From NCBI GenBank assembly GCA_016206675.1, contig JACQRD010000047.1, positions 1 to 37,040 on the forward strand: 37,040 nucleotides of DNA, read 5' to 3'. Positions 21,152 to 33,572 of this stretch are shown here, one piece after another (the first letter of the stretch is position 1; the number at the start of each line of letters is the position of its first letter). The notes under the pieces are model-generated. The model was not told where the DNA came from, searched no databases, and saw nothing but the letters and a program-made list of their open reading frames with translations. This DNA is from Candidatus Omnitrophota bacterium. GTDB lineage: Bacteria; Omnitrophota; Gorgyraeia; Aquiviventales; Aquiviventaceae. Position numbers and translations under genes: made by a program.

Positions 21152-22137
21152 CGATCCCAACGCGCCCGCTGGGAGCCACGGGGCCGCGCGTCTCGGCGCT
21201 GGGCCTTGGCTGCTCGTCGCTGGGCGGCGGGGTCTTCTCCCGCGACGACGCCGAATCGCTTCGCCTCTTGCATCACGCGTTGGAGCGCGGGGTGACCTTC
21301 TATGACACCGCGGATATGTACGGCTATGGCCACAGTGAGCGGCTCATCGGGCGGGCGTTCAAAGGCCGCCGGCGCGAAGTGATCATCGCCAGCAAGGCCG
21401 GCTTCTTGCCGTCGTCGCTGGCGCGCTGGGGGCAAGTCGCCCTGCCGGTTGCCGGGCTGGTGCGTCCGCTGCTGCAACCGCTGCGGAAACCGCTGCATCA
21501 GGCCTCGAAAACACGGCAGGATTTTTCCCGGGGCCACATCACGCGCGCCATCGACGGGACGTTGCAGCGGCTGCAGACGGACTACGTCGATGTCTATCTG
21601 CTGCACAGCCCGCCGACAGCGGTGCTGCAGCAGGGCGAGGTGTTCGAGCTCTTGCGAGCGATGAAGCGGCAGGGCAAGATCCGCCATGGCGGTGTGTCGG
21701 CGCACACGATCGATGACGCGCTGCTCGCATTGCGCGATCCGGATGTCGAGGTCCTCGAAGTGGCGTTCAATCTGTTGGATCAAGAGGCCGCGGTGCGCCT
21801 GTTTCCCGTCGTCGCCCAGCGGCCGGTGGGCATCATCGCCCGCGTCCCGTTGGCCCGCGGCCTGCTGATCGAGCGCGCGACGATGCAGCCCGGCAGGACG
21901 CGGTCGATCGCTCACGCAGCACTGCAGTTTGTGCTCCAGTATCCCGAAGTCTCCACGGTGATTCCCGGCACCAAGTCGGTGGCGCATCTGGAGGATAATC
22001 TCCGAGCGCTGGAAGTCGAACCTTTGACCCTCGAAGAAATACAACAAGTCACAGACCAATCGTGGCTCAGGGCTCGGGGCTCGGGGCAAACGACCCAGAG
22101 CCCCCAGCCCACAACCCAGAGCCACGCGGGTTCTTGA
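21148..22137 (+). CDS. Aldo/keto reductase
   Basis: LGLGC, YDTADMYG, SKAG, LQTDYVDVYLLH, VIPG..HLEDN. Confidence 0.92.
   Translation: MTIPTRPLGATGPRVSALGLGCSSLGGGVFSRDDAESLRLLHHALERGVTFYDTADMYGYGHSERLIGRAFKGRRREVIIASKAGFLPSSLARWGQVALPVAGLVRPLLQPLRKPLHQASKTRQDFSRGHITRAIDGTLQRLQTDYVDVYLLHSPPTAVLQQGEVFELLRAMKRQGKIRHGGVSAHTIDDALLALRDPDVEVLEVAFNLLDQEAAVRLFPVVAQRPVGIIARVPLARGLLIERATMQPGRTRSIAHAALQFVLQYPEVSTVIPGTKSVAHLEDNLRALEVEPLTLEEIQQVTDQSWLRARGSGQTTQSPQPTTQSHAGS
22061..22126. repeat. Inverted heptamer tandem repeat in AKR 3' end
   Basis: cgtggc tcagggc tcggggc tcggggc aaacg acccaga gccccca gcccaca acccaga gccacg. Confidence 0.75.
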
Positions 22138-29922: not shown

Positions 29923-30501
29923 ATGCCCTCTATCTCCGCGTCCCCGTCTGCGCCTACGCTGCTTGAAGGCGTGGAGCCCGCCCGGTGGCAGCGCCTCCAG
30001 GATCGCTTGGCCCATGTCCTCGGCGTGCCGATTCGGACCGTGGGGCTCTCCCGCGAGCTGCTCGTCCCGCCCAGCTGGCCCTCCAGCCTGGTCAACGACC
30101 AGACCATCGCCTTGTTGCGCGCCGGGGAGGAGCTGGAGCAGCTGATTCCGTCTGGGCAGCTGCTGCGCGAGGTCGCCAGCGTCACCACGACCCTTGGGGC
30201 CACCTACGCCGCAGTGCCGATGCGCGCCGCGCCGGAGTTGATCCTTGCCTACGTGGTGATCGGCCCGATCGTGGTGGGAGTGCGCGAGGAGGAGCTGCAA
30301 TTCCGCCAGCGAGTGCACGCGATGGGGCTTGATGCCTCCGCCCTGTGGCCGCTGATGCTCTCCCTGCGGCTGTATTCTTTCAGCGGGCTGCGAGCGCTGC
30401 TGGATCTGATCGAAGATCTCACCGGCCTGCTGGCTGAAATGGCCTATCGAAAGACCGGGGACGGTTCTCATTTTCCCGTCGGATCAATGCCGGGAAAATA
30501 A
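29923..30501 (+). CDS. Stand-alone PocR-like ligand-binding domain protein
   Basis: WQRLQDRLAHVLGVPIRTV...AAVPM...YVVIGP pattern resembles PocR sensor domains. Confidence 0.55.
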   Translation: MPSISASPSAPTLLEGVEPARWQRLQDRLAHVLGVPIRTVGLSRELLVPPSWPSSLVNDQTIALLRAGEELEQLIPSGQLLREVASVTTTLGATYAAVPMRAAPELILAYVVIGPIVVGVREEELQFRQRVHAMGLDASALWPLMLSLRLYSFSGLRALLDLIEDLTGLLAEMAYRKTGDGSHFPVGSMPGK

Positions 30502-30510
30502 GAACCGTCC
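30459..30510. repeat. 20-bp-arm inverted repeat overlapping stop codon
   Basis: ggacggttctcattttcccg / cgggaaaataagaaccgtcc (19/20 complementary). Confidence 0.8.
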
Positions 30511-30592
30511 TGCTCTGTCGAAAACCGCCCCGCCAGCGCCGTTGCGCCGCCGGACGCCTGGCTTCAGTGGACCGGCGCGGGGGGCCTGCAGG

Positions 30593-30976
30593 GCCAGCGG
30601 CGGCGGGGCCGGCCGCTCGCTCCGGTGCGGGCTCCGGGCGCCCGGAGGGCGTCGACCCGGCCGGCCAACTCCTCGCCGGTTAGGCTCGTCGGACAGGCCG
30701 GCCGTGTCTCAAAATCAGGTCGCCGCCTCCGGGCTGAGCCCGCACAGTCGCTCGCGGTCCGGCCCACGCCGCCGCTGGCTGTGTTTCGTGGGCTAGTAGT
30801 GCCGCAGGCACCCCCGGCGAGCGACTATGCGGTTCAGCCTGGCGCAGGCGGACTGCTGTTAGAGCCCCCGGCCGTGCTGTTTGAGGCGCCGGTTAAGCGG
30901 CGCCGAGTTCACGGCCGGGTCCGCCGAGCCGGGCGTCTCGGAACCGCATCGGAGCGAGCCGGGGTGCCGGCGGCAC
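30593..30976. other. Unassigned structured element: two ~180-nt imperfect hairpins that are inverted copies of each other
   Basis: Multiple nested 7-13 bp stems in each half with compensatory differences between halves (see findings). Confidence 0.8.
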
Positions 30977-31003
30977 AGAGGAGCGGCCGCGGTGGCGCCA
31001 GTC

Positions 31004-31032
31004 TTGCGAGTGTGAAAGTTTTCACATATAAT
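31004..31032 (+). promoter_or_regulatory. Sigma70 promoter with palindromic operator in spacer
   Basis: TTGCGA-17 nt-TATAAT; spacer holds TGTGAA-agtt-TTCACA (31011-31026). Confidence 0.88.
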
Positions 31033-31067
31033 GAAGTCTCTTCGTTCCATCGCGTAATTTCCCATCC

Positions 31068-31595
31068 GTGAAAGGGTTGGCGTTGCACGGGTCAGTCATC
31101 GAAGGATTCCTGGAGCAGGTCGCGCGCCGGGGATCATGGTTCGGGGGAGGCAGCGTGGCGGCGCTTGGCGCCGCGATGGCTGCGGCTCTGCTGGAAAAGC
31201 TGATCACCGACGCCGCCACCGCGCGGCGATTAAAGCGCATCCGGCGGCGGTGCGTGGCCCTCATTGATCACGACGCTGCCACCTTCTCGCGCGCCATCGC
31301 CGCCACCCGCACCGGACGACGCCGCGACTTCACGCGGGCCCTGAAGCGCGCGACGGAGGTGCCGTATCAGGTCTTCGCCGACGCGCACGCCATCCGCGCG
31401 ATCGGGCGCGCCACGCGGCAGGCGATCAAGCCGCGGTTTCAATCCGATGTGCGTTGTGCCGTGGCGCTGGCCGAGGCGGCCGCCCGCTCATCGGAGACGT
31501 TGATCCGCACCAACTTGACGTGGCTGAAGGACCGGGCGTATACGGCGCATATGAGCCGCCGATTGCGCAAGGCCTGCCGGCCTCATGTTGGTTGA
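31068..31595 (+). CDS. Cyclodeaminase/cyclohydrolase (FTCD_C, FchA-like)
   Basis: FLEQVA...GGGSVAALGAAMAAAL, LIDHDAATF, ATEVP, SDV...NL; adjacent to folD. Confidence 0.8.
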   Translation: MKGLALHGSVIEGFLEQVARRGSWFGGGSVAALGAAMAAALLEKLITDAATARRLKRIRRRCVALIDHDAATFSRAIAATRTGRRRDFTRALKRATEVPYQVFADAHAIRAIGRATRQAIKPRFQSDVRCAVALAEAAARSSETLIRTNLTWLKDRAYTAHMSRRLRKACRPHVG

Positions 31596-32463: not shown

Positions 32464-32482
32464 ATCTCAAGTGGCGGGTGAC

Positions 32483-32566
32483 GCGGAGACGTTCCCGAGA
32501 GGGAGGCCCGGACACGCCCTCGTCTCGTGGCGGGGAGAGGGAGGGTTCCCCGAGGGAACGTTCCGC
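32483..32566. repeat. Intergenic imperfect hairpin between folD and metF
   Basis: gcgga-g-acgttccc / gggaacgt-tccgc outer stem with inner GC-rich stems. Confidence 0.6.
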
Positions 32567-32596
32567 GGCAGGACCCGCCACTATCGCGATACAACG

Positions 32597-33496
32597 ATGA
32601 ATTTTCCTGACGCGAATCGATTCGAGCAGAAGCTCGGCAAGAAGTTCCTGGTCACCCTGGAAGTCAACCCGCCCAAGGGCACCGACCTCACCGAGATCCT
32701 GGCCGCGGTCAGGCAGGTCGGCGGCCTGGTCGATGCCCTCAACGTCACGGACGGCTCCGGCGCGATCATGCGGGCCTGCTCGCTGGCCGTCGCCAAGCTG
32801 GTGCTCGATGCGGGTGTGGATCCGATCCTGCAGATGACCTGTCGCGACCGCAACCGGCTGGCCCTGCAGGCGGACCTGCTGGGTGCGGCGATGCTGGGCA
32901 TCCGCAATGTGCTGGTGCTCACCGGTGATGATCCCAAATCCGGCGATCATCCGGAGGCGAAGCCGGTCTTCGACATCAACTCCGCCACGCTAATGCAGGT
33001 AGCACGGGGGCTTATCCAGGGCAAGGACATGGCTGGCAAGGCGCTTACCGGCAGCCCGCGCTACTGTATCGGCGCAGCCGCCGATTGCGGCGCGAAGGAT
33101 CTTGAGGTCGAGCTGCAGAAGTTCAAGGCGAAGGTCGACGGCGGGGCGCAATTCTTCCAGACGCAGGCCGTCTTCGATACGCAGCCATTGCGCGCCTTCA
33201 TGCAGCGTGCCACACCATTCAACACGCCGGTGTTGGCGGGCATCTTGCTGGTGAAGTCGGCGAAGATGGCGCGGTACATGAACGAGCACGTCTGGGGCAT
33301 CCATGTCCCGGACGCACTGATGGCTCGCTTTGAGCAGGCGAAGGATGCCAAAGCGGAGTGCGTGGCCGTCACCGTGGAGCTCATCAAGGCGGTGCGCGGC
33401 ATCGCGGACGGCATCCATCTCTACGCGCTCGGTTGGGAATCCCTGGTTCCCACCATCTTGAAGGAAGCAGGAGTAGAGCGTTCATTCGTTCATTAG
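32597..33496 (+). CDS. metF: 5,10-methylenetetrahydrofolate reductase
   Basis: TLEVNPPKG, NVTD, QMTCRDRNRLALQADL, LTGD, FFQTQAVFD. Confidence 0.93.
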   Translation: MNFPDANRFEQKLGKKFLVTLEVNPPKGTDLTEILAAVRQVGGLVDALNVTDGSGAIMRACSLAVAKLVLDAGVDPILQMTCRDRNRLALQADLLGAAMLGIRNVLVLTGDDPKSGDHPEAKPVFDINSATLMQVARGLIQGKDMAGKALTGSPRYCIGAAADCGAKDLEVELQKFKAKVDGGAQFFQTQAVFDTQPLRAFMQRATPFNTPVLAGILLVKSAKMARYMNEHVWGIHVPDALMARFEQAKDAKAECVAVTVELIKAVRGIADGIHLYALGWESLVPTILKEAGVERSFVH

Positions 33497-33563
33497 TTCA
33501 ATTGTTCAATGGTTCCGCAGAGAGCGGAACCGTTGAGCCAATGAACTATTGAGCCATTGAACG
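33479..33563. repeat. Inverted octamer tandem repeat at metF/gcvT junction
   Basis: cgttcatt cgttcatt agttcaat tgttcaat ggttccgc agaga gcggaacc gttgagcc aatgaact attgagcc attgaacg. Confidence 0.8.
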
Positions 33564-33572
33564 CAGTTGACG

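Follow-up and report, generated by a model that had tools for sequence, protein, structure and literature searches.

A head-to-head pair of large hairpins in an Omnitrophota genome belongs to a dispersed repeat family that is probably selfish DNA

Rickettsia palindromic elements (RPEs) are hairpin repeats of ~150 bp that occur between genes and, in frame, within them, with no known transposase according to the part of the account available to us (PMC10969869). Repetitive extragenic palindromes (REPs) are shorter (20-40 bp) and often form head-to-head heterodimers with short spacers; singletons are possibly remnants of dimers, some copies lie in genes, and the sequences are thought to act as folded single strands, as far as the sections used here describe them (PMC3733652). 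NTS/SRM hairpin repeats go with the Ssn family of GIY-YIG nucleases for single-stranded DNA (ssDNA), whose genes are usually flanked by repeats of their own in the portion of that work at our disposal (PMC11893778). Here we describe a pair of hairpins, A and B, at positions 30593-30976 of a 37,040-nt contig from a Candidatus Omnitrophota bacterium (assembly GCA_016206675.1, contig JACQRD010000047.1; "the window" throughout is this whole stretch, forward strand). We consider it likely that the pair represents two copies of a ~175-nt hairpin-forming interspersed repeat that is non-autonomous, REP/RPE-like selfish DNA of Omnitrophota. In our reading the family is undescribed, an unusually large and elaborately conserved relative of such hairpin DNA.

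The source genome (G000; relatives carry G numbers and families of the phylum f numbers) comprises 1.10 Mb in 97 contigs at 65% G+C and is 78% complete; the window is its contig C29, and the sequencing runs containing the locus are labelled groundwater metagenome. The pair, at 72-77% G+C, consists of an A-type copy (30593-30779), a 19-nt spacer between the two heads (30780-30798) and a B-type copy (30799-30976). We use B-sense for the window plus strand of B. A is the same element on the opposite strand, its folding strand being the window minus strand, where nhmmer and the covariance model both place it; the folding strand of B is plus, with a covariance model score of 156.5 bits. A first-pass annotation made from the letters alone had proposed that each half folds on itself, that B matches A, with divergence, in reverse complement and that one copy lies on each strand 19 nt from the other, all of which was borne out. 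The stems that it listed are present. In A, 16-nt arms at 30593-30608 and 30764-30779 are 94% complementary and further arms pair 30605-30634 with 30736-30765 and 30654-30666 with 30696-30708; in B the paired arms are 30799-30814/30961-30976, 30812-30835/30941-30964 and 30867-30876/30910-30919. Aligned with the reverse complement of A, B is identical in 115 of 193 columns, against 77 of 191 in the same-strand alignment.

Folding energies were compared with those of dinucleotide shuffles. As RNA, the plus strand of A folds at -139.5 kcal/mol (shuffles -102.6 +/- 4.24; z -8.70) and that of B at -125.1 kcal/mol (shuffles -90.3 +/- 4.32; z -8.06), with 0 of 200 shuffles as good in either case; with DNA parameters the minus strand of A reaches -83.2 (shuffles -55.3 +/- 3.46; z -8.06) and the plus strand of B -69.8 (shuffles -47.3 +/- 3.15; z -7.14). 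One giant hairpin joining A with B was rejected: the entire region 30580-30990 is predicted to fold as two separate, independent hairpins (z -8.09). At 72-77% G+C long stems arise easily, and the pair might have arisen by neutral local inverted duplication of GC-rich sequence or by chance as a palindrome, an origin for which the first-pass annotation would have looked to a lack of homologues and covariation and a fold no better than that of shuffled sequence. Homologues and covariation were both found, however, and the 0/200 shuffles, the dozens of copies elsewhere, the compensatory changes and the AU-rich homologues with the same loops, detailed below, refute this explanation, which we regard as scarcely credible.

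With a profile built from the copies, nhmmer found 31 matches in the source genome: 12 are partial, and those of full or nearly full length comprise 14 of B type and 5 of A type. Twelve of the 31 reach contig ends, so that the count underestimates the real number. B copies are mutually 87-96% identical (median 90.5%; 12 full copies compared) and A copies 84-92% (median 87.7%; 5 full copies), with 63-72% (median 67.9%) between reverse-complemented A and B copies. A and B are two subfamilies, usually arranged head to head: seven of the eight adjacent pairs run reverse-then-forward (C29, C13, C15, C44, C67, C75 and a remnant at C94), C48 being the sole pair to break this order, and the 19-nt spacer is found again at C48 and in part at C44. 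Relatives have three pairs (two in G021, one in G005), all reverse-then-forward, and most copies there are solo. Unit length is 173-193 nt within this bacterial family and can reach about 215 nt outside it. The suggestion of an undescribed non-coding RNA (ncRNA) pair at a unique locus was mistaken, since the element is dispersed: this genome has at least 31 matches, and some copies lie inside protein-coding genes.

The fold itself bears the marks of selection. In a MAFFT alignment of 31 copies from six genomes, made without structural knowledge and yielding a consensus of 38 pairs, 96.8% of the paired cells are complementary, against 33-37% when partners are slid by 1-3 columns; two-sided changes that keep pairing occur at 16 of the 38 pairs (2-6 when slid) and the covariation score is 0.295 (0.02-0.06 when slid), and 0 of 500 shuffles reach any of these values. 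The terminal arms are strongly divergent among copies, even within one genome, and complementary within each copy. What is invariant is the unpaired positions: the 5' arm carries GCGAGCGA and the 3' arm GAGCGAG, besides which there are TGTCYGA, GAGTT and a GCG. A further MAFFT alignment of 24 copies across groups and two classes has 19 invariant columns and 13 more that nearly are, every one of them within motifs, and two-sided change at 12 of 15 basal pairs. The two GAGCGA sites of B (plus strand; 5' at 30819-30824, 3' at 30952-30957) fall in columns that are invariant or nearly so in both alignments; those of A lie on the minus strand at 30617-30622 (3' arm in B-sense) and 30748-30753 (5' arm in B-sense), where the plus strand reads TCGCTC, just where the first-pass annotation had placed them. 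Its view that stems differ between copies while pairing is kept and unpaired parts are conserved, with selection acting on the fold, is upheld by the two alignments and by low-GC relatives that keep the loops.

Arranged antiparallel, GAGCGA facing GAGCGA could give G.A, A.G, G-C, C-G, G.A, A.G, and YGAG facing CGAG beside the apical stem could give another tandem G.A. Tandem G.A motifs can form sheared pairs, and both sets of facing motifs may do so here; on the opposite strand the same sites would be pyrimidine-pyrimidine mismatches. Among 90 copies aligned to the model, the non-Watson-Crick cells in B-sense are G.T/T.G in 100 cases vs A.C/C.A in 10, spread over 23 pairs for G.T and 9 for A.C. 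Some lean toward such a G.T excess is built into the way the model chooses the strand; orientation is however set by the asymmetric bulges, and the usual leading-strand C-to-T bias would act in the opposite direction. One strand, B-sense, is thus selected to fold. It is the C-rich strand in 10 of 11 contigs of the source genome. The spacer at the window's pair ends in TAGTA, which with the first G of B gives GTAG, and 10 of 49 copies have a GTAG 21-24 nt ahead of the 5' GCGAGCG (B-type ones in the source genome, one A-type at C13, and copies of G041 and G021), CGTC taking its position in 2 of the 49; the tag is absent from the copies of G015, G013, G003, G005, G048 and G016. At loci L096-L107 of G015 the copies form a subfamily that carries another small hairpin repeat within the 3' arm's asymmetric internal loop, and there the model matches positions 37-141 only.

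Of 24 further genomes in the same GTDB family 15 have BLASTN matches, as against 0 of 16 from other families. A first covariance model (R1) was positive in 13 of 34 other same-family genomes, the remaining 21 having no match, with 29 copies in G015, 15 in G021, 13 in G005, 8 in G013, 4 each in G003, G016 and G048, 2 in G004 and 1 each in G020, G041, G024, G019 and G012. Applied to 150 more genomes sampled from the class, R1 gave weak hits in only two outside the family; in the alignments of these, at 48-56% G+C, the stems are AU-rich and the loop motifs intact. Low-GC copies in other families keep GCGAGCGA, TAGC, TGTCYGA, GAGTT, GGCG and GAGCGAG. A three-motif pattern occurs in 16 of 401 genomes of the phylum vs 2 for its reversed control. 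Besides G000, 10 of the 15 genomes with the pattern have matches that fold as the same long hairpin, 200-215 nt at 40-57% G+C, in families f8, f10, f39 and f55 and in a second class (f74); matches in the other five look unrelated. In G029, G302 and G340 (L374-L376, family f6) the pattern matches a common conserved sequence that is not a hairpin. A second covariance model (R2) finds the f15 and f39 forms well and those of f8 and the second class weakly. With a GC-rich pattern searched in one genome per species, 11 covariance-model hits were obtained among 80 of 113 loci listed, all 11, among those listed, in records titled Candidatus Omnitrophota or "uncultured Planctomycetales"; the other listed loci, from unrelated GC-rich taxa, are chance matches.

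Rfam 15 gave no match at the gathering score in the whole window and only noise at E up to 10 in 30400-31150; the strong hit by which the first-pass annotation would have seen novelty removed is absent, and in the literature, with supplementary files outside the scope, we found no published account of Omnitrophota repeats of this kind. That no Rfam family claims the element would suit a multicopy structured ncRNA with a cellular function, transcribed in B-sense, its motifs being protein- or ligand-binding loops and its many copies in this bacterial family the product of gene amplification; so would the covarying stems with invariant loops that span two classes and 40-78% GC, the strand-specific excess of G.U over A.C and the several genomes with only 1-3 copies. 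We nevertheless think such an RNA unlikely. With respect to the mRNA, the in-frame copies in miaB, mnmA and an aminotransferase gene lie either way round, genomes of 1.1-1.3 Mb hold as many as about 30 copies, which break their assemblies, a scan of the window found no promoter-like site inside A or B, and no consistent U-tract was seen by eye 3' of the low-GC copies listed. Genomic positions are, moreover, not conserved between genera: upstream of the FTCD_C gene, where the window's pair lies, 28 of 29 relatives have no copy, and the one in G015 is 72.5% identical to B.

A more specific RNA identity is the lineage's 6S RNA. 6S RNA is an elongated hairpin of about 185 nt, similar in length and overall shape to the element, and the source genome has no match to the 6S family RF00013. 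The region has no RF00013 match, however, even when E values up to 10 are allowed, and of 60 other genomes of the class 50 contain a canonical single-copy 6S, at other loci (e.g. in G020 and G072), which refutes the identification and leaves it with a negligible probability.

All copies in the source genome are intergenic, where they fill gaps between co-directional genes almost exactly, and the genes that flank them are unrelated housekeeping genes. The element likewise fills gaps beside unrelated housekeeping genes in other families, e.g. pgi/metK, ftsA and cysS/cysE. Solo copies tend to have the folding strand antisense to their flanking genes: in the source genome this holds for 4/4 copies with two co-directional flanks and 4/4 with one assessable flank, in same-family relatives for 19/30 by our own count and in other families for 12/16. 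Counting 7 for the source genome the total is 38/53 (naive binomial p 0.002), from copies that are not independent and gene calls made by a crude in-house caller. Such bias, and the near-exact filling of co-directional gaps, might be expected of a cis element kept by the host in the manner of REPs and bacterial interspersed mosaic elements (BIMEs), one that would shield or process the ends of mRNAs, stop read-through or bind nucleoid or replication proteins, its spread being secondary. A solo copy at C42:3777 points the same way, being 97.8% identical to its G041 ortholog although the coding flanks are only 64-83% identical between the two genomes. Host benefit of this kind seems to us quite improbable all the same. 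The intergenic site upstream of FTCD_C holds unrelated hairpin repeat families in G041, of a related genus, the miaB site described below holds many unrelated palindromes, the copies in coding regions have no obvious cis role, and presence is patchy, with 21 of 34 same-family genomes lacking a match.

About 130 nt of non-repeat DNA adjoining the C42:3777 copy is conserved as well as the copy itself, and its G041 ortholog still has a truncated A alongside. Over C42:3644-4108 (L029 vs L151 of G041) the intergenic block, including non-repeat DNA, is 97-100% identical between the two genera, an identity that could be due to lateral exchange, strong constraint or assembly chimerism.

Copies inside genes point to mobility. 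Seven of 63 copies in relatives lie in plausible open reading frames (ORFs), four of them clearly internal, and a copy in miaB of G013 is additional. In mnmA of G016 an in-frame copy splits the tRNA_Me_trans domain; the mnmA of the source genome, 60% identical, lacks exactly the 62 residues of the insert and represents an empty site. A short form of the element lies inside a class-V aminotransferase gene of G024, and in G019 and G020 the element separates "...LLRMID.." from "RIRFTTSHP" in MiaB, splitting the radical-SAM domain. In all three genes the frames stay open and Pfam domains are split. Across 24 genomes of the family (L401-L426) the miaB site has a 12-nt (four-residue) linker in six, which we take as the empty site, and inserts of 39 to >200 nt in the other 18, in frame where readable; 15 of these 18 inserts are palindromes of unrelated kinds, and the present family accounts for those of G013 (opposite orientation) and of G019 and G020 (same orientation). 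One MiaB loop is an insertion hot spot. The inserts of G019 and G020 are 93% identical (96.6% over the element core) between 300-nt flanks of 71-73% identity, or, in a windowed comparison, 97-98% in the insert vs 55-83% in the flanks, and a rough FastTree of MiaB without support values does not place the two genomes as sisters. Identity between the miaB copies and the mnmA copy of G016 is 87-89%. We read the miaB and C42 cases as probable recent acquisition at re-used sites, lateral or targeted, with very strong constraint as the alternative. The empty sites in relatives for which the first-pass annotation had advised a search were thus found for the mnmA and miaB insertions. For the window's own pair none was found among 29 relatives: synteny upstream of FTCD_C is not conserved, and the PocR-like gene stands there only in the source genome.

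A partner enzyme was sought among known mobile-element and nuclease families. Small single-domain GIY-YIG genes occur in all 35 genomes of the family, and a copy lies at only 1 of 30 loci of this kind. Conversely, 185 element loci have two distinct GIY-YIG genes within about 1.5 kb of a copy, where a rough estimate expects ~0.7; these lie 30 nt from the copy in G276 (L366:1126-1446) and about 1 kb away in G020 (L161:2631-2924). An Ssn-type GIY-YIG partner was rejected, the genes being ubiquitous but not adjacent and the two cases within chance. A link to the REP-associated tyrosine transposases (RAYTs) was likewise rejected, with no such gene in the source genome and none beside the repeats. 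Of the three candidates put forward at first, a giant REPIN-like mobile unit comes closest to what we find, in its form; the RAYT or HUH transposase that was to go with it did not turn up. Paired ssDNA signals akin to ssi priming sites, another of the three, would call for strand-specific priming on ssDNA, and what the data show is a strand-specific fold.

Several observations count against a selfish mobile element. No Y1_Tnp (PF01797, RAYT-like) gene was found in the source genome, 78% complete as it is; the domain is present in 17 of 24 family relatives, but not in G015 and G021, which have the most copies, nor in G004, and 0 of 26 Y1_Tnp loci hold a copy within about 1.5-2.5 kb on either side. 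TnpB is found in 0 of 5 copy-rich genomes (G000, G015, G021, G005 and G013, all incomplete), and DDE_Tnp_1 and rve are absent from G000, G021 and G013, in a search that did not extend to IS110, integrases or reverse transcriptases. We saw no target-site duplication in the flanks of 13 B copies, among 49 copies across genomes or at the mnmA junction, and no insertion polymorphism. Among the pieces listed from contigs of four DNA runs of one study none spans the pair (one ends at 30540, another starts at 30948), and no clean removal joint appeared. Phylum-wide unpaired motifs and 1-3 copies in many genomes would also be expected of a functional RNA. The antisense bias given above fits selfish spread poorly as well; the folding strand is the presumed lagging-strand sequence, and the strand bias is opposite to that of IS200/IS605 ssDNA transposons. 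The non-sister placement of G019 and G020 depends on the unsupported tree already mentioned. Since all genomes are incomplete metagenome-assembled genomes (MAGs), copy numbers and absences are soft. Mobile genes are often left unbinned in MAGs.

Weighing these points, we still favour a non-autonomous selfish repeat, which would settle in intergenic gaps and, in frame, in permissive protein loops, as REP/REPIN and RPE do. It would be handled as a folded single strand of B-sense, more probably ssDNA than RNA. The purine-rich internal loops (GAGCGA/GAGCGA and YGAG/CGAG, with tandem sheared G.A) may offer the recognition surface for a trans-acting factor, which might be encoded by the host or by unassembled DNA. 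A bolder proposal, which we entertain only tentatively, is that a phylum-wide element defined by structure, a long one-strand hairpin with tandem G.A platforms recognised by an enzyme conserved in Omnitrophota, invades fixed hot spots in intergenic gaps and protein loops, moves between genera and so represents a new class of hairpin-targeted single-strand mobile DNA or, less likely, a self-propagating RNA.

At the window's locus the pair stands between the PocR-like gene, with its end at 30501, and the sigma-70-like promoter that precedes an operon of the FTCD_C, folD and MTHFR genes, at 31004-31032. This promoter (TTGCGA, 17 nt, TATAAT; 10/12 consensus) is the sole promoter-like site of the scan; its TTTCACATATAATGA core also occurs upstream of the G041 ortholog, where the -10 region is conserved. 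The A/B pair at this locus is probably a passenger. Self-comparison of the genome marks 30511 to 30999 as the repeated interval. Its left part, 30511-30592 (plus strand), is a separate repeat module that abuts A, a part of the mosaic outside the hairpin; the module (~50-85 nt) occurs at seven other places and directly adjoins an A copy at C41, C42 and C56. Its right end, 30977-30999 (plus strand), is a conserved 3' extension of ~23 nt after B with a consensus of about ARAGRAGCGGCCGYGGTGGCGC in the flank alignment of 13 B copies, and resembles the starting bases of an A copy. Short repeats cover 440 intervals of the source genome, 78 kb or 7% of it, in about 80 families clustered in mosaics. 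Long "repeats" there are due to eleven paralogous gene pieces of GspE/PilB-type secretion ATPases and to a galT-like tandem duplicate (C8, C47, C49, C72, C94; C27). Within the window, the stop codon of the PocR-like gene is spanned by a hairpin at 30459-30510, its 20-nt arms 95% complementary around a loop of 12 nt, of which the genome yielded no other copy. The junction between folD and MTHFR is filled at 32466-32583 by family C, a separate hairpin repeat of ~113 nt; it has at least 18 further matches in the genome, several adjoining A/B copies, and since it overlaps the GTG listed as a start at 32471 the real start codon is probably close to 32597. Two more short repeats lie at 33477-33564 (a 10-copy family) and 22064-22123.

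If our interpretation is right, ultra-small Omnitrophota genomes carry a large hairpin parasite whose recognition motifs have outlasted complete turnover of the stems and a shift from 40% to 78% G+C, and which has repeatedly occupied the same permissive sites, including those in essential tRNA-modification genes. Its motif, defined at the RNA/DNA level, could serve as bait for the enzyme that moves or processes hairpin repeats in the phylum. It would add a second independent system, beside Rickettsia, in which selfish palindromes become protein segments, and it carries a warning for annotation, since assemblies break at these elements, which also give rise to false N-terminal extensions and long spurious ORFs.

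Among described systems, MITEs, or miniature transposable elements with inverted repeats, derived from DDE insertion sequences share with the repeat a short, non-coding, multicopy form and terminal inverted repeats. In the Omnitrophota element, however, the terminal arms covary rather than being conserved, no target-site duplication accompanies it, and no parent insertion sequence or DDE transposase (DDE_Tnp_1 or rve) is present in the source genome, and we reject a DDE-type MITE. An IS200/IS605-derived, PATE-like element is likewise disfavoured by the lack of TnpA and TnpB in the source genome and of TnpB in G015, G021, G005 and G013, all of them incomplete genomes. NTS/SRM repeats resemble it as genome-wide hairpin repeats potentially read as ssDNA, and GIY-YIG genes are present in all 35 genomes; SRM copies, as the available portion of that work describes them (PMC11893778), cluster around a cd10448-type GIY-YIG gene, whereas only 1 of 30 GIY-YIG loci here holds a copy.

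REPs and BIMEs, with the palindromes tagged by GTAG or CGTC, come closest in arrangement, with inverted dimers, singletons as possible dimer remnants (compare the truncated A of G041) and copies inside genes, to the extent that the sections used here cover these features (PMC3733652). Unlike a REP of 20-40 bp (PMC3733652), the Omnitrophota unit is about 175-215 nt long with several internal loops, its GTAG tag is confined to 10 of 49 copies and no RAYT gene is flanked (0 of 26 loci, and no such gene in G000, G015 or G021). Membership in REP/REPIN was rejected on unit size and RAYT association, the inverted dimers agreeing. RPEs offer the closest parallel in behaviour, being hairpin repeats of small genomes that lie between genes and, in frame and translated, inside unrelated housekeeping genes, so far as the available part of that account goes (PMC10969869). 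The in-frame palindromes of mnmA (G016), miaB (G019, G020 and G013) and the class-V aminotransferase gene (G024), with empty sites in relatives, follow the same pattern. The likeness is one of description, and homology is not to be expected because the phylum and base composition differ. Set beside what that partial account reports of RPEs, the Omnitrophota element is distinguished by unpaired motifs that span classes together with covarying stems, by its strand preference, by its head-to-head pairs and by its mostly intergenic location.

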